A stretch of 64,000 bases of DNA from the NCBI GenBank assembly GCA_044224815.1, contig JBGAJR010000019.1, forward strand, positions 64,001-128,000, written 5' to 3'. The notes under the pieces are model-generated. The model searched no databases and was not told the DNA's origin. It saw only the letters and a program-made list of their open reading frames with translations. Below, one piece after another: positions 8,080-24,488 of the stretch (positions are counted from its first letter, which is position 1; each line of letters begins with the position of its first letter). This DNA comes from Polyangiaceae bacterium. GTDB taxonomy: Bacteria > Myxococcota_A > Polyangia > Polyangiales > Polyangiaceae. Both the position numbers and the translations under genes were made by a program.

Positions 8080-10326
8080 TCACGGGATGCGCGCGCAGCG
8101 GAAGCCGTACGTGAGGTGGCGGCTGCCGAGCGCGTCTCCGCCCGACGTCTGGGTGTCGGTGCGCATCTTCGCCGGAGCGTCGTTGAACGACCCGCCGCGC
8201 GCGTAGAGCTGCGGTGACGGACGCGTCGGAGAGCCCTCCACGCAGTCGACGCAGGTGTTCGCGGGGAACGCGCTGGCGTGGAAGTCGAGCGTCCACTCCG
8301 CGAGGTTCCCCACCAAGTCGAGCTGACCGTACCGACCGCCTCCGAGCGCGGCGACTCCGCCGGGCACCGCGGGCAGCGTTCCCGGACACGCGCCGTCACC
8401 GCTCGCGCAGTACACCGCGTACTGCGGCGAGAGCGTGGCCGTGCCCCACGGGTGGTCGCGCTCGGGCGTTCCTCCCGACGCGGCGTAGTCCCACTCGGTC
8501 GCGCTCGGCAAGAAGCCGCCGTCCCAGATGCAGAATGCATACGCTTCGGCCCACGCGACGCAGTTGATCGCGCGCTGGGGATGGCTCAGGTAAGTCGCGT
8601 TCGCTCCGCCCTCGCAGCTCATCGCCGCCGCCCACGCGGGGAAGTCGCTCGGGATGTTGTTCTCCCAGACTTTGCTCCACCCCTCCTCGTAGTCGGGGGT
8701 CTTGCTGTTCAGTACGACGAGGCCGCTCCCGCCGTTCAGATGAACATGCTTGCCCGCTCCGGCCGCGGGGCGGAATCCAGCGCCGACCCACGCGTCGACG
8801 AACACCTTGAAGCGCGCCGCCGTGACCTCGTACTTGTCGAGCACGAAGCTCGTCACGGTCGAGGGGAACGTGGGATCGCCGAAGCGGTGGAAGCCTGCGC
8901 CGCCGGGCACCTTCGTCGCGGCGCAGCAGCTCTCGCTCTGGCCCGGTCCGCACGTGTCGAAGCCGTTCCCGGTCTGTCCATTGCAGCTCGGCGGCGGCCC
9001 GCACGCGTTGGGGCCGCCCACACCGCAGACTTGGTCGCCGGTGCACGTGTTCGGGCAGTTGATCCAATTGCCGCAGTTGTCGAGCGCGGGGCCGCAGGCC
9101 TTGCCCGTGCAGGCCGCCGCAGCGTTCGACGGGCAGACACAAGCGTACGTGCCGGCGTCGCTGGCGGTGCAAAGCTTTCCTTGCGGCTGACACGTGTCGG
9201 GGCAAATGATCGATTGCCCGCAGTTGTTGATCGCCGTGCCACAGGCCTTTCCGTTGCACGGCGTCAGGTTGTCGGCGACGCACGTGCAGGTGGATGGCGT
9301 GCCCTGGCACGTCTGGTCCGCGGCGCACGCGCCGCAGCTCGTCGATTCGCAGCCGTTGTTGCGATCGGTGGGCACGCACTTGCCGTTGCAAGCTTTGGTA
9401 CCAGGACCGCATGTGCCCACGACGCATGCGCCACCTTGGCAGAGCACGGTGCCGGCGCCCGCGTCGGGACAAGCCGCCGAGTTGCACGAGCTCTCGGTGC
9501 ATCCGTAGGTGGGATCGTTGGTCGCGACGCACTTGCCGTCGCAGAGCTTGTAGCCCGCTCCGCATCCAGAGAGAGTGCAGGCCTTGCCCGCGCCGCAGGT
9601 GAAGGTCGAGTTGGGATCGACCGAGCACGGCGCGCACGCTGCGGATCCGCACCCGTACCTGGGATCGAAGGTGCTCTGGCACGTGTCGGCGCAGCGCTTC
9701 TCGGAGCTGCCGCACGAGAGGCCACCGTCGGAGGGCGCGTCGACCGTGGCATCGGATGCCGCCGCGTCGGGCGGCACTTCGAGCGTGCCTGCGTCGTGCT
9801 CGTCGCCGGGTGAGTATGTGGGCAGGCTCGACGCGTCGACGCGCGACGACACGCAGGATCCGCTCCGCGGATCGCACGTCTCGCCGCCTGGACATCGTGA
9901 CCGCGCGACGTCACCGTCCGCGAATACTTGCGGTGTACAACGACCGCTCAGCACCACCTTCAGCGCGGCGACACGATCGGTGGGGATCTGCTCGACGAGG
10001 TTGTCGCGTCGGTCGAGCGGAACGCCGGCGCGCCAACCGACCACGCTGATTTGCACGGAGGCGGCGGGATTCCCGTTGGACGCGATCGCGAGGGTCGTGG
10101 GGAGCGTGACCTCGGCGGGGAGTCGATAGTCGCTCTTGCGGAGCGACTGACCGTTGGCGGCGATCTCGATCTCCAAGCGATCGAGCGAGAGCGGGCCGTC
10201 CTCCGCGACGATGAGCATGAGCCCACCGAGATCGCGCCCGCGCGTCGTCGAGCAACCGGTCGGGAGCGCGCCCAACGCGATCGCGAGGCCAGCGCAGGCG
10301 TAGGCGAGGCGACGCGTCACAACCAT
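8080..10326 (-). CDS. Lipoprotein with tandem Myxococcus-type cysteine-rich repeats and a C-terminal FGE-sulfatase (SUMF1/DUF323) domain
   Basis: Lipobox LPTGC. Repeated 30-35-aa Cys modules such as CGAGYKLCDGKCV, CGPGTKACNGKCV, TPCNGKACGTAINNCGQSIICPDTC and AACTGKACGPALDNCGNWINCPNTC. The last 250 aa match the FGE fold (YEVTAARF, INCVAWAEAYAFC, RGGSF, GFRCARIP). The final motif SRHLTYGFRCA contains a single Cys. Confidence 0.75.
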   Translation of the reverse strand: MVVTRRLAYACAGLAIALGALPTGCSTTRGRDLGGLMLIVAEDGPLSLDRLEIEIAANGQSLRKSDYRLPAEVTLPTTLAIASNGNPAASVQISVVGWRAGVPLDRRDNLVEQIPTDRVAALKVVLSGRCTPQVFADGDVARSRCPGGETCDPRSGSCVSSRVDASSLPTYSPGDEHDAGTLEVPPDAAASDATVDAPSDGGLSCGSSEKRCADTCQSTFDPRYGCGSAACAPCSVDPNSTFTCGAGKACTLSGCGAGYKLCDGKCVATNDPTYGCTESSCNSAACPDAGAGTVLCQGGACVVGTCGPGTKACNGKCVPTDRNNGCESTSCGACAADQTCQGTPSTCTCVADNLTPCNGKACGTAINNCGQSIICPDTCQPQGKLCTASDAGTYACVCPSNAAAACTGKACGPALDNCGNWINCPNTCTGDQVCGVGGPNACGPPPSCNGQTGNGFDTCGPGQSESCCAATKVPGGAGFHRFGDPTFPSTVTSFVLDKYEVTAARFKVFVDAWVGAGFRPAAGAGKHVHLNGGSGLVVLNSKTPDYEEGWSKVWENNIPSDFPAWAAAMSCEGGANATYLSHPQRAINCVAWAEAYAFCIWDGGFLPSATEWDYAASGGTPERDHPWGTATLSPQYAVYCASGDGACPGTLPAVPGGVAALGGGRYGQLDLVGNLAEWTLDFHASAFPANTCVDCVEGSPTRPSPQLYARGGSFNDAPAKMRTDTQTSGGDALGSRHLTYGFRCARIP

Positions 10327-10375
10327 CGGGAACGCCTAGCGTATCAGAACGCCAGGGGCTCCCCACCGAGTCGGA

Positions 10376-11455
10376 TCAGAACTGGCCGGCTCCGCTCGCG
10401 CCGCATTGGGCGCACGCCGGATCGCTGGGGTTCTTGGCGCACGTCATCGGGCAATACTGGACGCGGTTGAAGACGAGCGGGTTCGTGCCGTCGCCGATCT
10501 CGTCGCAGAGGACGCTCTTCCCGATGACGGTCATCTCGCCGTAGACCGCCGAGCCCGCCATGATCTTGTCGACGCACGCCGAGTTGTTGCTCACCCAACC
10601 TGGGAGCTCGGGGAAGGCCTGGGGAGTGTTCTCTTTGAGGTAGTCGCCTTCGGTGCACACGGTGCCGAGCGAGCAATCACTCGGCGAAGGGTTCTTCGCG
10701 TCGCCGGCCTTGATCGTGTAGCAGAGCTTCAAGTGCCCCGCGCAGTCGACCGTCAGGGTGTTCTTGCTCCACGGCGTGGAAGGCGTCGTGTTGGGCGGCG
10801 GCGTGCCGCCTGCGCAGGTGGCCGACGTCGCGTAGCTCCCGGTGCCGCCTTGCACGAAGCACGGGACGAGGTTGTCGATCTTCCACTGGCCCTGCGAGAA
10901 GCACTTGCACGCTTGCGCGCCCTTGGTCGCGCCCGGCGTCGGGAGCTCGAACCCTTGGCACTTGCCCCACACCTTGCCGAGCTCGCCCTTGGTCTCGCAG
11001 GTGGTCGTACCGTCTTTGCATTGACCGAGATCGCGATTCACGCGCTTGCCCGGCCAGCACGACGCCTTCTCCCCGAGCGTTTTGCACGGGCAGCCCTCTT
11101 TGTTCTTGTCGTCGGGGCAGTCGGGCGTGCCGCCTGGCGGAGCCGGCGCGGGCTTGCCTGCCGGACCACACCACTTCGGCGGCGGGTCGTTGGCCCAGAT
11201 CTGATCGGGCGTGTACGTCTCGTCCTTGGGCGCGACGTCGTCGCCGAAAGTCGGCGCGCCGGCCTCGGCTTGGGCGTTGGCGTTGCTTTGGGGAACGCCG
11301 TCGCGGTCGGTGGAGCTGCACGCCGACGCGGCCGCAGCGATCGCGGCCGCGGTTACGAGCAAGGAGAAGAGGGGCTTTCGCACGGCGAGCACATACCCTG
11401 CCGCGGCCACAAAGCTTCCTCTCGGGTGCCAGTCGACCGTTAAATGCAGATGCAA
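10376..11455 (-). CDS. Cysteine-rich secreted lipoprotein
   Basis: Signal peptide LLVTAAAIAAAASAC. About 30 Cys over 359 aa. Same orientation as the FGE-domain lipoprotein and directly upstream of it. The true start may be an internal GTG. Confidence 0.55.
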   Translation of the reverse strand: MHLHLTVDWHPRGSFVAAAGYVLAVRKPLFSLLVTAAAIAAAASACSSTDRDGVPQSNANAQAEAGAPTFGDDVAPKDETYTPDQIWANDPPPKWCGPAGKPAPAPPGGTPDCPDDKNKEGCPCKTLGEKASCWPGKRVNRDLGQCKDGTTTCETKGELGKVWGKCQGFELPTPGATKGAQACKCFSQGQWKIDNLVPCFVQGGTGSYATSATCAGGTPPPNTTPSTPWSKNTLTVDCAGHLKLCYTIKAGDAKNPSPSDCSLGTVCTEGDYLKENTPQAFPELPGWVSNNSACVDKIMAGSAVYGEMTVIGKSVLCDEIGDGTNPLVFNRVQYCPMTCAKNPSDPACAQCGASGAGQF

Positions 11456-13345
11456 ATGCGGAGCGCCGCCGACTTAGTCCCGAAAAGCGCGCCATGGCGG
11501 CGCGCGGCGTCGGTCGCTGCGGGCGCGCTCGTGCCCGGGCTCGCCGTCGTCGCGTTCGACTTCGTCCTGCGCGGTGCACAGCTCACGCGTTACCGCGCCG
11601 ACCTCTTCCAGTTCTATCTGGGCACCGCGGCGCTCTCGCTCGTGCTCTGGGCAGCGGCGGTGTCGTTCGTCGCGAGCTTGGAGCGCGCCCGCGTGCTCGG
11701 CGTCGCGCTACTCGCGTCCGCCGCGATGCTCGTCGTCGGCAGCCAGATCTACTGTCACGGTCGCTACGGCGCGTATCTGAACCATCGCGCGGCGGCGGTG
11801 GGCATGTCGGTGATGCCCAGCGTGGGCCAGCAGATCTGGACTGATCGCGCGACCGTGGCCACGGCGCTCGGCGCGCCGGCGCTGGTGGTCGTGATCGCTG
11901 CGCTTCTTTCGCTGCGCGCGCGCAGGAAACACGTGCCCGACGCAGGCGCGCTTCGTCGCGCGAGCCGGGACGTGCTCGTCGCGGCCGTCCTCGCGTCGTT
12001 CTTCGCGGCCCCCAAGGGCGGCGATCAGCAATCGGCCACCCCCGACGTGCTCTACATGTCTGCGCTCGGCGAGCTCGCCGCGGCCCGCTGGCGCCACGAG
12101 GTGGACGCCGCGCGCGTGACGCCCGGTCCGCGCCATCCGCTGCCGGTGCCCACGCTGCGCCGCTCCGCGGACGTGCCACCGCGCGACGTCGTCTTCATCG
12201 TCACCGAGTCCGTGCGCGCGAGCGACACCTGCGTCGTTCCCGGTGCGCCCTGCACGACGACGCCGTTCACCGACGCGCTCCTGCCCAAGCGCTACGCCTT
12301 TTCCCAAATGCGCGCGCTCGCCTCGACGACCGCGATCTCCCTCGCGGTCTTGTGGAGCGGCCTCGGCACCGACGCGTCGCGCGAAGCGTTTCACACGATG
12401 CCGCTCGCCTGGGACTACGCCGCCGCGGCTGGCGTCGACGGCGCCTACTTCACGGCGCAGAACCTCTTCTTCGCCAACGCGGGCACTTGGCTCGACGGGA
12501 TCCCGGCTCGGCATCGCGTGAGCGCGACGCAGCTCACGCCGTACTCGACTTACGAGATCGGCGCCGACGAGCGCACTCTCGTGGACTACGTCGTGGCCCA
12601 CGCCGGAGAGCTGCGCTCGCCGTACTTCGCGGTGGTGCACCTATCCAACACGCACGCGCCGTATTTGATCGACCCCGACGACGCGCCGTTCCAGCCGCAG
12701 GTGCTCGGGTTCGGGCCGGGTCCGATCGCGCCCATCCACAACCGCTACAAGGATGCCATCCATCGGCAGGACAAGATCGTGGCGCGCCTCGTGCGCGAGC
12801 TCCGTGCGCGCGGACACGATCGCACGGTGTTCGTGTTCACGTCCGATCACGGCGAGCAGATGCGCGAGCGCGGCGCCCTCACGCACACGACCTCGGTCAT
12901 CGATCCCGAGGTGCGCGTGCCGTTTTGGATCGACGCGCCGCCCGGAACGCTGACCCCCGCCGAGTCGGCGGCGCTCGCGGCGCAGCGAGACACGCCGCGC
13001 ACCATGCTCGACGTGCTCCCGACCCTGCTCGATCTCATGGGCGTGTGGGACGCGCCCGAGATCGCGCCCTTCCGCGGGCGGCTCGCGGGAGCGAGCTTGC
13101 TCCGCGGAGGCTCGGACACGTCCCGTCCGGTGCTGCTCTCGAACTGCAGCGAGCTCTTCGCGTGCGCGTTCAAGAACTGGGGTGCGATCGCGGGAACGAG
13201 GAAGCTCTTGGCGAGCCAGAACGACGCAGCGTGGCAGTGCTACGACATCGCCGCCGATCCCGACGAGACGAGAGACCTCGGCGCGGCTGCGTGCGCCGAC
13301 CTCCGGGCCGTCGCTGAGGGTGGCGGTCGCGGCACTCCGTTTTGA
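11444..13345 (+). CDS. Polytopic membrane protein with a sulfatase/alkaline-phosphatase superfamily domain (LtaS/EptA-like phosphotransferase family)
   Basis: About 5 N-terminal TM helices. The catalytic-domain motifs are DVVFIVTESVRASD, HLSNTHAPY and FTSDHGEQ. There is no C/S-x-P-x-R sulfatase motif, so FGE-type modification is unlikely. Paralog of 22686..24488. Confidence 0.75.
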   Translation: MQMQMRSAADLVPKSAPWRRAASVAAGALVPGLAVVAFDFVLRGAQLTRYRADLFQFYLGTAALSLVLWAAAVSFVASLERARVLGVALLASAAMLVVGSQIYCHGRYGAYLNHRAAAVGMSVMPSVGQQIWTDRATVATALGAPALVVVIAALLSLRARRKHVPDAGALRRASRDVLVAAVLASFFAAPKGGDQQSATPDVLYMSALGELAAARWRHEVDAARVTPGPRHPLPVPTLRRSADVPPRDVVFIVTESVRASDTCVVPGAPCTTTPFTDALLPKRYAFSQMRALASTTAISLAVLWSGLGTDASREAFHTMPLAWDYAAAAGVDGAYFTAQNLFFANAGTWLDGIPARHRVSATQLTPYSTYEIGADERTLVDYVVAHAGELRSPYFAVVHLSNTHAPYLIDPDDAPFQPQVLGFGPGPIAPIHNRYKDAIHRQDKIVARLVRELRARGHDRTVFVFTSDHGEQMRERGALTHTTSVIDPEVRVPFWIDAPPGTLTPAESAALAAQRDTPRTMLDVLPTLLDLMGVWDAPEIAPFRGRLAGASLLRGGSDTSRPVLLSNCSELFACAFKNWGAIAGTRKLLASQNDAAWQCYDIAADPDETRDLGAAACADLRAVAEGGGRGTPF

Positions 13346-16708: not shown

Positions 16709-18577
16709 TCAGCGGCGCGCCGCGCGCGAATACACGCTCACGATCGGCACGCCGTCGTGGCGGAGGATGAACGCCGGCGCCACGGTCTGGTAGGCAATCC
16801 AGATCGAGTAGTCGACCTCGTTCATGTGGAGCTCGTGATGAACGAGGGCGATCTGTGCCTCGCTCGGGCTGCCCACGCCGCGAAGGTCGGGCCGGATGCG
16901 TTTCTCGGCGATGAGGCGCTCCCACGACGGCCAAGACGTGTCGTGGATGAAGACCGCTGCACGCTGCGGCGCGTTGGCCTCGAGCCACGGGCCGACGCTC
17001 TCGGTGGTGTAGCCCCAAAACTGGCGGTTCAAGCCGAGGTCGGCGCCGCCTGCGGTGCCGCCCACGAGGGGCACGTAGGTCGAGAGGCCGAACGGGTGCG
17101 AGTGCTTGGTGATCGCCAAGGGGCCGACGATGGCCGCCACGCCGAGCGCCCACGGCGCGGCCTCGCGCCAGTCGGGCCGCTTCTCGGCGAGCCAGGTGTC
17201 CATCGCGGCGCGCGCGAGATCGAAGCCGCGTCCCGCGAGGAGCGCGAGGAACGGGTACGCCGGCATCCAGTGCTTGGTGCCGCCGAAAATGGGCGTCGTG
17301 GGGAGGAAGAACACGGCGAGCGGGCCGGCGAACGCGAGCCCGATCAAGAGATCGGTCGCGCCGTCGGGGCCGCGCCCGTCGGGCGCCGCGAGGAACGCCG
17401 CCTTGTCGCGGAAGAACGCCGTGACGCGCGCGAGGCTCGTCTTGATGCGCTCGCCGCCGCCCAACAAGAAGAGGAGGATCGTGACGGTGGGCACGCTCGC
17501 GAGCACGAGCACCGGCGCGTAGAGCGGCGGCGACGGCGGGCCGAAGTAGTTCCGGCCCAAGAACTCCATGTTGTAGTACTCGTGGTGAACGTGGAAGTTC
17601 ACGTACTCGTCGATGCGCGGCTTGGTGTCGAACCACATCCAAGGCCAGAGCGCATAGAAGACGAGCGGCCCGAGGGTGCTCATCGAGACGAGGTTCCACG
17701 GGATCGCTGACGCGGGCTTCTTGCCGCCGAGGAATCCGCGCGCGTACGTGAACGCGGCGTGGGGCACGAAGACGAGCGGGAGGATCCACGCGTTGTGCTT
17801 GGTCTCGAGCGTGAGGCCGTACACGACCCCGGCGGCGATGGCCCAGCCCACCGAGCCTTCTTCGGCGCTTCGCCAGTAGACGTACACGCTGAGGAGCCAC
17901 ATCGCGACGATGGGCACGTCGAAGCAGGCGAGGTGCGCGTTGTAGAAGAGGTGCGGCATCAAGCCGAGCAGCACCGCCGCCACGACGCCGGCCGGACGCG
18001 AGAACGCGCGCGCGCCGAAGAGGTACGTGACCCAGATCGCGAGGCCGCCCATGGCCATGCCCGGGAAGCGGAAGGCGGTGCTCGCGTCAGCGAACACGTG
18101 CCACTTTTTGTGGAGCACCATCCACGAGATCGCGAAGAGCCCCTTCATGAGCGAGGGGTGCTCGTGGTTCGTGCCCCAATAGCCGTCGACGACGTTTTGC
18201 TGCATCGCCGCGCGGCCCTGCTCCATCAAGCGCTCGAACCACCCGGCGTAGGTCGAGGCGGCATGGAAATAGAAGCCCTCGTCGCGCGCGAAGCCCAGGC
18301 CCCGCGCGGTCGAGAGGAGCCACCCGAGGTAGAGGAGCCCGAGGACCGCGCCCACCACGTGATCGGCGGGGCCAATCGGTCCTTTGAGGTCAAACGATAG
18401 GGACTGCTTCGACGCGGTGCGCGTGACCGGCGCGGAGGCCGCCGCTTGCGGCGCTTTCGCGTCTTCGCCGATGGCGTCGGAGGTCTCGAGCTTCGCCGGT
18501 TCGGGCGCGGCGCTGTCGGTCGCTTCCGCGGGGCTCGCCTCCGGCTTCGCGTCGTCTTTCTCGTCCGGCGCGCTCAT
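16709..18577 (-). CDS. Polytopic membrane glycosyltransferase of the GT39/PMT_2 (ArnT/protein-O-mannosyltransferase) family. The track ORF to 19429 is over-extended.
   Basis: From MSAPDEKDD onward there are multiple TM helices and the loop-1 motif RDEGFYFHAASTYAGW, which resembles the PMT DE-motif loop. The ATG at 18577 overlaps the stop of the upstream gene (ATGA). Confidence 0.7.
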   Translation of the reverse strand: MSAPDEKDDAKPEASPAEATDSAAPEPAKLETSDAIGEDAKAPQAAASAPVTRTASKQSLSFDLKGPIGPADHVVGAVLGLLYLGWLLSTARGLGFARDEGFYFHAASTYAGWFERLMEQGRAAMQQNVVDGYWGTNHEHPSLMKGLFAISWMVLHKKWHVFADASTAFRFPGMAMGGLAIWVTYLFGARAFSRPAGVVAAVLLGLMPHLFYNAHLACFDVPIVAMWLLSVYVYWRSAEEGSVGWAIAAGVVYGLTLETKHNAWILPLVFVPHAAFTYARGFLGGKKPASAIPWNLVSMSTLGPLVFYALWPWMWFDTKPRIDEYVNFHVHHEYYNMEFLGRNYFGPPSPPLYAPVLVLASVPTVTILLFLLGGGERIKTSLARVTAFFRDKAAFLAAPDGRGPDGATDLLIGLAFAGPLAVFFLPTTPIFGGTKHWMPAYPFLALLAGRGFDLARAAMDTWLAEKRPDWREAAPWALGVAAIVGPLAITKHSHPFGLSTYVPLVGGTAGGADLGLNRQFWGYTTESVGPWLEANAPQRAAVFIHDTSWPSWERLIAEKRIRPDLRGVGSPSEAQIALVHHELHMNEVDYSIWIAYQTVAPAFILRHDGVPIVSVYSRAARR

Positions 18578-19500
18578 CGGGTGATCCCTTCGAAGCAGTA
18601 CATGCGGCGGTTCGCGCTGGGCGCCGTCACCTCGGCGACGAGGTCGGCGGTTTTCCCTTTGAGCTCGTTCGTCGGAAGATCGAACGCCTTCCAGCCCTCG
18701 CCGTCGCGATGGACGACCTTGCCGAGCCGGACGTCTCCGGAGCGGAACGACAGGCTCACGTCCGGCCCGTCTTTGCCGCGCTCGGCTTCGACGTAGAGTC
18801 CATGGTGACCGTGGAGCACCTCGCCGAACTTCACGTTCTTGAAGGTGAGGACGAGCGCGTGCGCGCCGCCCGGGGGCGTCGCGAGGAGGCAGCGCCGCGG
18901 GTAGTAGTCGAGATCGGCCGCGACGCTGACGCCCACGGCGCCGCTCGGGCAGCCGAAGCGCTCGCTCGGGATGGCGGGCCCTGCGCCCAGGCCGCCGGCC
19001 ATTGCGCCACCCGGGGACCACTGACACGGCGTCTCGCTCTGATCGCGGGCGTCGCGTCGCGCGGCGGTCATGCCGTCGGGGCTCGGCGAGACGTGACGAA
19101 GGAGATCGTCGAGCGTGGGCGCGTAGCTCGGGTTCTCGAGGACACGCACGGTGACGCCGCCGGCGCGCTCCTCGGATGCGACGCGCCACGGGGCGAGCTC
19201 GGGGTCGTGCTTGCCGCGGATGGAGACCTCGAACGCGCGCGGGAAGCGTGAGACGTCGGCGCGCGCGACGCGCTCGAGGGTCGCGAGGCCGTCGCCGAAG
19301 ATCTCGCGCCCGATCGGGTCGGTCCACCGCGGCGCGAACGCGATCAGATCCTCGCGCTTGGCTTGTGCGGCCACGAGCTCTTTGGCGCGCACCCAGTCCG
19401 CGTCCGGCACGACGTGGCTCGTCTGCCAAAGGTGCGCGCCGAGCTCGACCACGCCGGCGAGCGGCAAAAGCGCCAGCACCCAGACCTTCGGCGAAACCAT
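18574..19500 (-). CDS. Hypothetical secreted or periplasmic protein, translationally coupled to the GT39-family gene
   Basis: 308 aa. N-terminal signal/anchor VWVLALLPLAGVV. Its stop overlaps the downstream ATG by 4 bp. Confidence 0.55.
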   Translation of the reverse strand: MVSPKVWVLALLPLAGVVELGAHLWQTSHVVPDADWVRAKELVAAQAKREDLIAFAPRWTDPIGREIFGDGLATLERVARADVSRFPRAFEVSIRGKHDPELAPWRVASEERAGGVTVRVLENPSYAPTLDDLLRHVSPSPDGMTAARRDARDQSETPCQWSPGGAMAGGLGAGPAIPSERFGCPSGAVGVSVAADLDYYPRRCLLATPPGGAHALVLTFKNVKFGEVLHGHHGLYVEAERGKDGPDVSLSFRSGDVRLGKVVHRDGEGWKAFDLPTNELKGKTADLVAEVTAPSANRRMYCFEGITR

Positions 19501-22685: not shown

Positions 22686-24488
22686 TCACCGGTTCGGGGC
22701 GCCGCTCGGCAGCGTCTTGAAGTGCGCCTGCGAGAGCGCCCGGAGCGCGTCGCAGCCATCGGCGCCGTGGGAGGCGAGATCGACGCAGCGCCATTCGGGA
22801 TCCCACACTTGCGCCGTCAATACGCGCTGCTCACCGAGCATCCCCCACGCGTTGAGCGGGCAAGGAAAGAGCGCGGTGCAATTGGTGATCGGTATCGGTG
22901 CGATCGGCGTGGGCGAGCCGAGAAGGCTTCGACCGGGGAGCGCTGCGACTTCGGTGCGCAGGCCGAACGCGCCGCGCACGCCATAAACGTCGAGCACCGT
23001 GGGCAATAGATCGAGGTGCGTCACGAGCGCTCGCTCGTAGTCCCGAAGCGCGCGGAGGCCGCGATCGTCCACGCCACCGCCGCGGGTGAGCATCCAGCCC
23101 GGTACGTGGATCTGCTCGTCGTAGAGGTTCTGCCCGTGGTGAATCGCGGAGTGCTCGCCGAACGCCTCGCCGTGATCGCTCGTGTAGGTGACCACGAGCG
23201 GCGTGCCCGAGGCCTCGCTCTTTCGAAACACCGCCCGAAGCACCTCGGCGAGCGCCGCGTCTTGGGCCACGATCGCGTTCTTGTAGGCCGCGTGCAGCTC
23301 GCCGAGCGTGGACCAGCTCACGACTCGCGACCACGGGGCAAACGGCGCCCGCGCCGGGTCGACGTAGTAAGGCGCGTGCGTGCCGGCGAACTGAAGGAAC
23401 AAGAAGAACGGCTGCGGGAGCGCATCGAGATCGCGGAGCGCGCGCTCGGCGAGCTTCCGGTCCACGCCTTCGTCGGTGACCTTGTCGTCGTCGTCGATCG
23501 CGCGCCCGAGCAAGGTCTCCACGCTGATGAAGGAGTCCGCCGCCTTCTGCACGTCGTCGCGTTCGAAGACCGACGCCATCTGCGCGGTCCAGACTGCGAC
23601 GTGGGGCCGAACGCCGTCGGGCCCGCGCACTCGCCGTACGAAGTCGAAGAGCGTGGGCGCAGCGAGCGTGCTCTCGCGGTCGGCCGTTTGCGTGCGGCCG
23701 GTGAGCACGGCGGAGAGAGACACCGCCGTGTAGCTGCTGACCGCGCGCATCTCGCGGAGCGGCAGGCGATCGCGTGTCAGCGCATCCACCTCGCGCATCG
23801 TCTCGCACGGAGTCGCCGTATCGCTCGGTGCGCTGCACGCGTCGCTCGCCCGCACGCTCTCGGTGAGGATGAAGACCACGTTGGGGAGCTTCGGTCCGGT
23901 CGTCGCCACCGGCGTCTCGTCGCGTGCGACGCGCGGCCCCGTCTCCTTCGCCGCATGGTCGAGTCGAGCGCTCGCGAGGTGGAGCGTCGCATCGGCGAGC
24001 GCGATCTCCGGCGTCGCGCGACGCGCGGCCGGGCCGAACGTCAGCCCCACGAGCGTCGCCGCCGCAGCCCCGATCACCGCGCGTGACGGTCGCAGAACGG
24101 GAGCGGCCAAGACGAGCGTGATCTCGGCGGCGAGGCCGGCGGCCACGAGCGCCGCCGCGCGCCCGGGCATCGATGCGAGCACGGAGCGGACGTCGGCCAG
24201 ATTGTGAAGCGCGCTCTCCGCGATCTGGCGATCGACGAAGACGTGCCAGTACCTCGCGAAGGTCGCCTGCGTGACGAACGTCAGCCCGAACAGCACCGCC
24301 GCCGCGACGCGAGCGGTCCGGGGGCGGATCGCGAGGACCAGCGCGCCGACGCCGGCGCTCGCGATCGTGACCAGGGCTCGCTCACCGAGCGAGAGCGAGC
24401 GCGCCGAGCTCAGAAGATCGAGTACGGCGAATTGGAGGACGAAGATCGCCGCGGCACAGGCTCGCGCGATGCGGGCCGTCGGCACCAT
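22686..24488 (-). CDS. Polytopic membrane protein with a sulfatase/alkaline-phosphatase superfamily domain; paralog of 11444..13345
   Basis: N-terminal TM helices. NVVFILTESVRASD, AGTHAPY and YTSDHGEAFGEH match the paralog motif for motif. Confidence 0.75.
   Translation of the reverse strand: MVPTARIARACAAAIFVLQFAVLDLLSSARSLSLGERALVTIASAGVGALVLAIRPRTARVAAAVLFGLTFVTQATFARYWHVFVDRQIAESALHNLADVRSVLASMPGRAAALVAAGLAAEITLVLAAPVLRPSRAVIGAAAATLVGLTFGPAARRATPEIALADATLHLASARLDHAAKETGPRVARDETPVATTGPKLPNVVFILTESVRASDACSAPSDTATPCETMREVDALTRDRLPLREMRAVSSYTAVSLSAVLTGRTQTADRESTLAAPTLFDFVRRVRGPDGVRPHVAVWTAQMASVFERDDVQKAADSFISVETLLGRAIDDDDKVTDEGVDRKLAERALRDLDALPQPFFLFLQFAGTHAPYYVDPARAPFAPWSRVVSWSTLGELHAAYKNAIVAQDAALAEVLRAVFRKSEASGTPLVVTYTSDHGEAFGEHSAIHHGQNLYDEQIHVPGWMLTRGGGVDDRGLRALRDYERALVTHLDLLPTVLDVYGVRGAFGLRTEVAALPGRSLLGSPTPIAPIPITNCTALFPCPLNAWGMLGEQRVLTAQVWDPEWRCVDLASHGADGCDALRALSQAHFKTLPSGAPNR

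Follow-up and report, generated by a model that had tools for sequence, protein, structure and literature searches.

Lipoproteins and secreted proteins that carry a formylglycine-generating enzyme (FGE) fold and lack its catalytic cysteines are well known. The ligand-binding C-type-lectin (CLec) fold includes the FGE fold as a subtype, and CLec/FGE domains are used as ligand sensors (PMC10907252). In FGEs the active-site cysteine pair forms the Cu(I) site that is required for catalysis (PMC6676471, PMC5324649). Among proteins having the fold without this pair, PorK is a docking hub (PMC12421860) and Tsi3 is a toxin-binding immunity protein (bioRxiv 10.1101/2021.05.21.445229). The gene described here, p1, lies on a stretch of 64,000 nucleotides (the window) from a Polyangiaceae bacterium (contig JBGAJR010000019.1, positions 64,001 to 128,000), its source being a Polyangia-type myxobacterium. 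The coding sequence, taken from the open reading frame (ORF) list, occupies positions 8080–10326 of the window on the (-) strand (748 amino acids plus stop) and specifies a putative mosaic lipoprotein composed of an N-terminal module (N-module), a cysteine-rich stalk and an FGE-like head. In our preferred reading, to which a probability of roughly 0.6 is given, p1 is a secreted, lipid-anchored display protein whose head would bind a ligand through a remodelled groove, by analogy with the cysteine-less FGE folds named above.

The FGE / C-type-lectin-like head comprises residues 469-748 (8083–8922, (-)). A first-pass annotation of this DNA had proposed an FGE-sulfatase-like C-terminal domain, and this was borne out by a match to Pfam family PF03781, the FGE fold, over residues 489-746 and by similarity to known FGEs in Foldseek (E=1.5e-13, target TM-score 0.68). 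The best sequence matches in the PDB were to human FGE. Comparison values for the head were 23.2 for both EgtB and PorK, 21.2 for PvdO, 21.1 for CalU17, 20.9 for SUMF2 and 20.4 for TvpA. The FGE fold of the head is not in doubt.

The catalytic positions were located using human FGE numbering (chain index + 85), which was checked against the known position of S155. The HMMER alignment of p1 with human FGE runs to GGSF-N against GGSY-M335 and ends one residue before the catalytic C336. The GGS motif of p1 corresponds to residues 711-713, and a C-x4-C pair would come directly after it; ungapped extension of the alignment places D716 and M721 at the positions of human C336 and C341. No cysteine occurs between C695 and C744 of p1, and the degenerate active-site segment (residues 711-746, GGSFNDAPAKMRTDTQTSGGDALGSRHLTYGFRCAR; 8089–8196, (-)) has none at either catalytic position. 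Its C744, in the motif GFRCA, aligns with the structural C365 of the human enzyme, the partner of which, C218, corresponds to C599 of p1 (AFCIW). The first-pass annotation had looked for the catalytic motif in SRHLTYGFRCA, which is the wrong place, since the cysteine there is the equivalent of C365. It had also described the head as short of one catalytic cysteine; the loss stands, and the number has to be corrected to both. Alignment for the two catalytic cysteines that would mark an ordinary FGE thus found neither of them in p1.

The head retains its structural core motifs. C599 and C744 are conserved at 100% and 99%, and the LPSxxEW, GG, PWG and GNxxEW motifs are kept (84 Polyangia heads and the 13-member p1 family). 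The alignment of the whole C-terminal segment of p1 with CalU17 and PorK, both non-catalytic, extends from end to end. The head has kept the fold and, it is predicted, the structural disulfide C599-C744 (human C218-C365), and it has lost both of the Cu(I)-binding catalytic cysteines. In the p1 family (p1 itself plus its 12 full-length relatives) the catalytic segment lacks cysteine in 13/13 members, and among 84 homologues of the head in Polyangia genomes it does so in 83; the loss is ordinary, and indeed the rule, in this lineage.

The PF03781 match and the human FGE as best PDB match could also be taken to mean that p1 is a genuine FGE which activates sulfatases. Both Cu-binding cysteines are absent, however, and the whole subfamily is without the pair. 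R343 of human FGE, which contacts the catalytic cysteines, has no conserved equivalent, the aligned segment being unconserved in the p1 family. Nor was any formylglycine (FGly)-type sulfatase with the motif C/S-x-P-x-R found in the 64 kb window, in agreement with the earlier statement that no Cys/Ser-type sulfatase is visible. A sulfatase-activating role is extremely improbable and, at the level of sequence, is refuted by the absent pair; because the Cu(I)-binding cysteines needed for catalysis are missing, p1 is predicted not to be a formylglycine-generating enzyme.

The head subtype was defined by EAxAFCIWD and F[RV]LD[KRL]YEVT and was searched for in species-representative genomes. In all, 536 loci were confirmed, nearly all from Polyangia/Polyangiaceae (Minicystis rosea among them), and several genomes held multiple copies. 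Two subfamily-specific motifs were recognized, H527-x-H529 (8740–8748, (-)) within P-x2-G-x-G-K-H-x-H-L-N, and C692-x-x-C695 (8242–8253, (-)), the latter invariant in the 13-member family. Over the 84 Polyangia heads, which are only ~40% identical overall, conservation was 98% for H527, 93% for H529, 99% for E547, 100% for W550, 98% for C692 and 93% for C695. H527-x-H529 aligns to S155-F-V157 of human FGE, where S155 lines the substrate groove; HMMER pairs H527 with S155 in a gapped region of low confidence. The former groove would now bear a subfamily-specific signature made up of H527-x-H529, E547-G-W550 and C692-x-x-C695.

CxxC and HxH are classical metal-binding motifs. The signature residues could accordingly build a metal centre (Cu, Zn or Fe) from H527-x-H529, E547 and C692-x-x-C695 in the former FGE groove, in place of the lost cysteine pair. 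The head would then be an enzyme with a new activity, which oxidises a substrate outside the cell or acts on it in some other way. Conservation of 93-99% among such divergent heads and the alignment of H527 to the groove-lining S155 speak for such an enzyme, as does the NCBI label of relatives (P0043), 'SUMF1/EgtB/PvdO family nonheme iron enzyme', which is a generic family name. On the other hand, a CxxC in an oxidising extracellular compartment is most likely a disulfide, the alignment of HxH falls in the gapped region mentioned above, the scaffold otherwise carries mainly binding domains as heads, and the neighbourhood conserves no gene for a partner enzyme or a substrate. A new activity is on balance unlikely, and slightly more doubtful still is the wider proposal that the Polyangia head subfamily (536 loci) would be an undescribed class of extracellular enzymes, built on an FGE fold with a rebuilt groove and carried by a combinatorial lipoprotein scaffold.

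The first-pass annotation had suggested a non-catalytic, ligand-binding FGE-like module. The core of that idea holds, the catalytic cysteine pair being absent, and binding is what other repurposed FGE/CLec folds would predict: the head most likely offers a binding site whose ligand is a glycan or a protein.

Segment 714-740 is unconserved within the p1 family, and this C-terminal variability could be explained if a diversity-generating retroelement (DGR) used the head as its variable target; FGE/CLec folds, with the variable region at the C-terminus, are the usual DGR targets. In the 64 kb window, no template repeat of the 3' end of p1 was found (the best non-self match was 22 nt) and no reverse transcriptase motif was present; no reverse transcriptase domain was found among the window proteins scanned. 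Moreover, p1 is nucleotide-identical on an independent metagenome contig (L012) and shows a single synonymous difference on another (L011). With no template repeat or reverse transcriptase in the window and a gene invariant across samples, retroelement diversification was ruled out at this locus, short of a repeat and transcriptase acting in trans from elsewhere in the genome, and its probability is negligible.

The N-terminal part of p1 fits a display protein. The signal peptide (residues 1-25, MVVTRRLAYACAGLAIALGALPTGC; 10252–10326, (-)) ends in the lipobox-like LPTG-C25, and the N-terminus MVVTRRLAYACAGLAIALGALPTG-C25 resembles a lipoprotein signal. All family members whose N-terminus is present conserve C25, with G or A as the residue before it, which is in keeping with the lipoprotein-type N-terminus reported earlier and makes C25 the putative site of lipidation. 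Residues 4-6 of the n-region (T-R-R; 10309–10317, (-)) form a twin arginine, seen also in the relatives P0004, P0007, P0008 and P0010, with a weak resemblance to the twin-arginine translocation (Tat) motif; Tat export of a protein with 58 cysteines seems unlikely.

The signal peptide is followed by the N-module (residues 31-165; 9832–10236, (-)), a seven-stranded beta-sandwich with a four-cysteine knot (C130, C145, C151, C158) that belongs to no Pfam family. It is joined to the stalk by a low-complexity Pro/Asp/Ala linker (residues 166-204; 9715–9831, (-)), which is partly predicted to be disordered (predicted local distance difference test score, pLDDT, <50 at residues 184-200) and varies in length within the family. 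Residues 201-470 hold 44 cysteines in 270 residues. Self-BLAST of the stalk gave nothing usable, and the repeats were resolved by profile-profile comparison using hhalign. Three A-type modules with eight cysteines each (residues 209-258, 259-309 and 310-352; 9271–9702, (-)) are predicted to form stacked beta-hairpins. They are followed by two B-type modules, also with eight cysteines (residues 353-401 and 402-450; 8977–9270, (-)), with the motif C-x-G-K-x-C-G-x4-N-C-G-x4-C-P-x-T-C. The A1-A2 comparison gave 98% probability (E=7e-14), A1 or A2 with A3 93-94%, and B1-B2 98.3% (E=1.4e-14); no significant hhalign similarity was detected between types A and B.

Tandem disulfide-repeat modules had thus been seen correctly in the first pass, with the count to be lowered from at least six to five. 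Their assignment to the Myxococcus-type cysteine-rich repeats does not hold. The stalk gave no match at E<0.1 to the models of that repeat in Pfam and NCBIfam (PF13948, named DUF4215, and TIGR02232), whereas the positive control P0044, a relative that shares the N-module, scored 6.8e-36 with five repeats.

In the arrangement proposed for p1, a Sec-type signal peptide and the lipobox C25 would direct the protein to a membrane anchor, probably in the outer membrane, with the beta-sandwich N-module adjoining the anchor. Beyond a flexible linker, five 8-Cys modules, presumably held by ~20 disulfides, would make up a rigid stalk, and the stalk would present the C-terminal FGE / C-type-lectin-fold head. 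With ~20 disulfides presumed in the stalk, p1 must fold in an oxidising compartment. The analysis shows the domain composition, the fold, the lack of the catalytic cysteine pair, the shuffling of modules and the taxonomic spread, whereas lipidation, localisation, the disulfide pattern, the binding function and the kind of ligand are what we infer. Some observations weigh against a lipid-anchored binding protein: the -3 position of the lipobox is non-canonical (Pro); the nearly invariant HxH, Glu and CxxC are the kinds of residue from which metal or catalytic sites are built; and the neighbourhood of p1 offers no clue to function, being uninformative because the neighbours differ in every relative.

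The mosaic nature of p1 was established by BLAST mapping, in which the N-module, stalk and head each recurred independently. The protein has 51 homologues, of which about 12 are full length (43-99% identity). The N-termini of PA14/DUF4215 'fibro-slime' proteins match its N-module at 51-58% identity, stalks bearing other heads (for example a GDSL lipase) match its stalk at 42-54%, and many FGE-like proteins match its head at 35-45%. With the N-module as query, phmmer retrieved 471 representative clusters in an exhaustive search, 193 of them at E<=1e-10; almost always the module occupies residues ~25-190, immediately behind the signal peptide. In a Pfam census of 81 N-module proteins the heads included FGE-sulfatase (11), DUF4215 (10) and Lcl_C (6), together with EGF-like, beta-propeller, beta-helix, ConA-like lectin, CBM9 and pectate lyase domains, all of which are extracellular binding or carbohydrate-acting domains. 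The architecture had been called uncommon; the exact combination is indeed rare (~12 full-length relatives), but the modules taken singly are common and occur, shuffled, in hundreds of proteins. One relative, P0008 (739 aa), forms a tandem pair with another FGE-domain paralogue, 650 aa long (L002:1265-5516), and P0006 and P0007 are found on one 3.3-Mb contig; these tandem and same-contig copies show a recent paralogous expansion of the p1 architecture.

Directly upstream of p1 on the same strand, after a gap of 49 nt, lies p2 (10376–11410, (-)), which encodes a putative cysteine-rich beta-sandwich lipoprotein. The ORF is open up to TTG 11455 and had been given earlier as a second Cys-rich protein of ~359 aa. 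The ORF (10376–11455, (-)) does adjoin p1, but the length is most likely 344 aa, from GTG 11410: this start is preceded by the ribosome-binding site GAGAGGAAG and was picked by independent gene calls on three contigs. The p2 family has at least 396 matches (45-68% identity, all ~340 aa, mostly from Myxococcota) and no Pfam domain. It is characterized by 22 conserved cysteines, a lipobox cysteine (AASA-C31 in p2) and an invariant C-terminal Phe, and is separate from, and much larger than, the p1 family.

The first-pass annotation had raised co-transcription of the two genes, and they could form a functional two-gene unit whose products act as a co-transcribed complex. They share a strand, no terminator was found in the 49-nt interval, and two independent metagenome contigs agree exactly in arrangement and intergenic sequence. 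Adjacency was seen only on near-identical contigs, however, and these come from essentially the same organism. Relatives of p1 at 47-53% identity have other neighbours: PhyH with a nonribosomal peptide synthetase-polyketide synthase (NRPS-PKS), a tandem FGE paralogue, or OmpA. No p2 relative was found near the p1 relatives P0005, P0006 and P0008, and none within 6 kb of 80 head loci by tblastn; in L002, the gene upstream of the tandem FGE paralogues (367 aa) has no relationship to p2. Conversely, no p1 relative was found near the p2 relatives P0100, P0130 and P0159 in three distant genomes, where the genes downstream of the p2 homologues are unrelated to p1 and to each other. The family sizes are also unlike (at least 396 for p2 against ~12 for p1). 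Co-transcription is possible, given the short gap and lack of a terminator; a conserved p2-p1 operon is largely refuted by the missing synteny, and a functional unit of the two is improbable.

Some features of the locus are recorded as side observations. The longest p2 ORF, from TTG 11455, overlaps the start (ATG 11444) of the divergent 633-aa ORF, and from GTG 11410 the distance to that ATG is only 33 nt, so that something is unusual in the promoter layout or in one or more of the annotated starts. Divergence from L011 and L012 varies along 8080-11410: over p1 and the 49-nt spacer there is either no difference or one of 1 nt, whereas 19 nt differ in the 1,035-nt p2 gene (16 synonymous and 2 non-synonymous codon changes). 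The step between the genes may be a recombination boundary between strains. The GC content of p1 is 0.85 at third codon positions (GC3) and 0.617 at second positions (GC2), the gene being Cys/Gly-rich. A GC3/GC2 gene filter missed p1 because of this GC2 value; the antisense ORFs 8750-9190 and 9194-9508 (+), which passed the filter, were rejected as artefacts. PADLOC defence-system models gave 0 matches for p1, p2 or their neighbours, and membership in an anti-phage defence system was ruled out on that basis.

The divergent gene (11444–13345, (+)) encodes a 633-aa EptA/LtaS-like membrane protein of family PF00884 (2.2e-27), in keeping with the membrane sulfatase-superfamily gene described in the first pass. 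An NCBIfam phosphoethanolamine-transferase model matched over its whole domain (7.3e-11), and it has about four N-terminal hydrophobic regions and the motif FIVTESVRASD. A paralogous PF00884 protein is encoded at 22686–24488 (-), and the two have in common multi-transmembrane N-termini and the motif F-I-x-T-E-S-V-R-A-S-D. No C/S-x-P-x-R was present in the catalytic domain of either; being EptA/LtaS-like and without this motif, they need no FGE. A functional tie of p1 to the adjoining 'sulfatase' was ruled out by the TESVR motif, the absence of an FGly need and the unconserved adjacency. Together with a PMT_2/ArnT-like glycosyltransferase of 906 aa within 12 kb (16709–19429, (-)), the PF00884 pair suggests an envelope-modification neighbourhood.

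Clustering of the genes flanking 80 head loci returned mostly generic kinases and histidine kinases. The pairing that alone looked specific was that of a GH29 alpha-L-fucosidase plus F5/8 type C (discoidin) gene lying directly upstream of the head-subfamily gene in 5 of the 80 Polyangia loci (L020:3706-5697, L025:1896-3392, L037:10-1617, L048:2107-4020 and L052:3683-5566). The two ORFs abut in L037 and L048, with a common stop/start coordinate, and are 10 nt apart in L020. This pairing gives a faint hint of a glycan connection for the heads; were the head an enzyme of new activity, the occasional coupling to GH29 fucosidases means that it might act on glycans.

For annotation the result is useful, if unsurprising to specialists: p1 and hundreds of Polyangia genes are routinely labelled FGE or sulfatase-modifying factor, and would be unable to activate sulfatases. 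As such p1 is a fairly ordinary representative of a large family that has been little described. The N-module (471 clusters), the two kinds of 8-Cys stalk module and the p2 family (at least 396 members) are at present without a Pfam family. Soil myxobacteria build surface lipoproteins in combinatorial fashion, joining an anchor module and a disulfide-rich stalk to exchangeable heads. Should HxH/E/CxxC turn out to form a site for a ligand or a metal, the head would offer a tractable model of how an FGE fold is repurposed. A literature search found no paper on the p1-type family in myxobacteria. What is new is the mosaic architecture, the head signature, and the unannotated N-module, A/B stalk modules and p2 family.

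Among known systems, human SUMF1 and the FGEs of S. coelicolor and T. curvata have the same fold as p1. Human FGE and p1 have in common the motifs AFCxW...LP(T/S)xxEW and GNxxEW and a disulfide of the C218-C365 type; the C336/C341 pair and the C235-C346 disulfide of the human enzyme are absent from p1 and the groove residues are replaced. Unlike the FGEs, p1 is fused to a lipoprotein scaffold and has no substrate sulfatase in the window. DGR variable lipoproteins (Legionella LdtA, Treponema TvpA) differ in that the p1 locus has no template repeat, reverse transcriptase or hypervariation.

Loss of the catalytic cysteines is common to p1 and PorK, Tsi3, PvdO, CalU17 and SUMF2. SUMF2/pFGE, PvdO, CalU17, ToxD and Tsi3, unlike p1, are single-domain periplasmic, endoplasmic reticulum or biosynthetic proteins, and in the alignments made they lack the HxH/E/CxxC signature, although the CalU17 alignment misses the HxH region. 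Nor does p1 lie in a type VI secretion system, pyoverdine or natural-product gene context. PorK/GldK, lipoproteins of the type IX secretion ring, have an FGE-like fold. Against the GldK equivalog (TIGR03525) p1 scored 45.9 bits, the cut-off being 350; the InsH/InsV insertions described for PorK are not present in p1, and no PorL/M/N-type genes were found among the window proteins scanned. PorK is, moreover, from Bacteroidota and p1 from Myxococcota, and the N-module and Cys-rich stalk occur in p1 and not in PorK.

The 'fibro-slime'/PA14 DUF4215 proteins (e.g. P0044) share the N-module with p1 at 53-61% identity. The spacer of P0044 is true DUF4215 (6.8e-36) and its head is PA14, whereas the spacer of p1 is unmatched and its head FGE-like. 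The two kinds of protein follow the same plan, in which an anchor module and a Cys-rich spacer carry an extracellular head.

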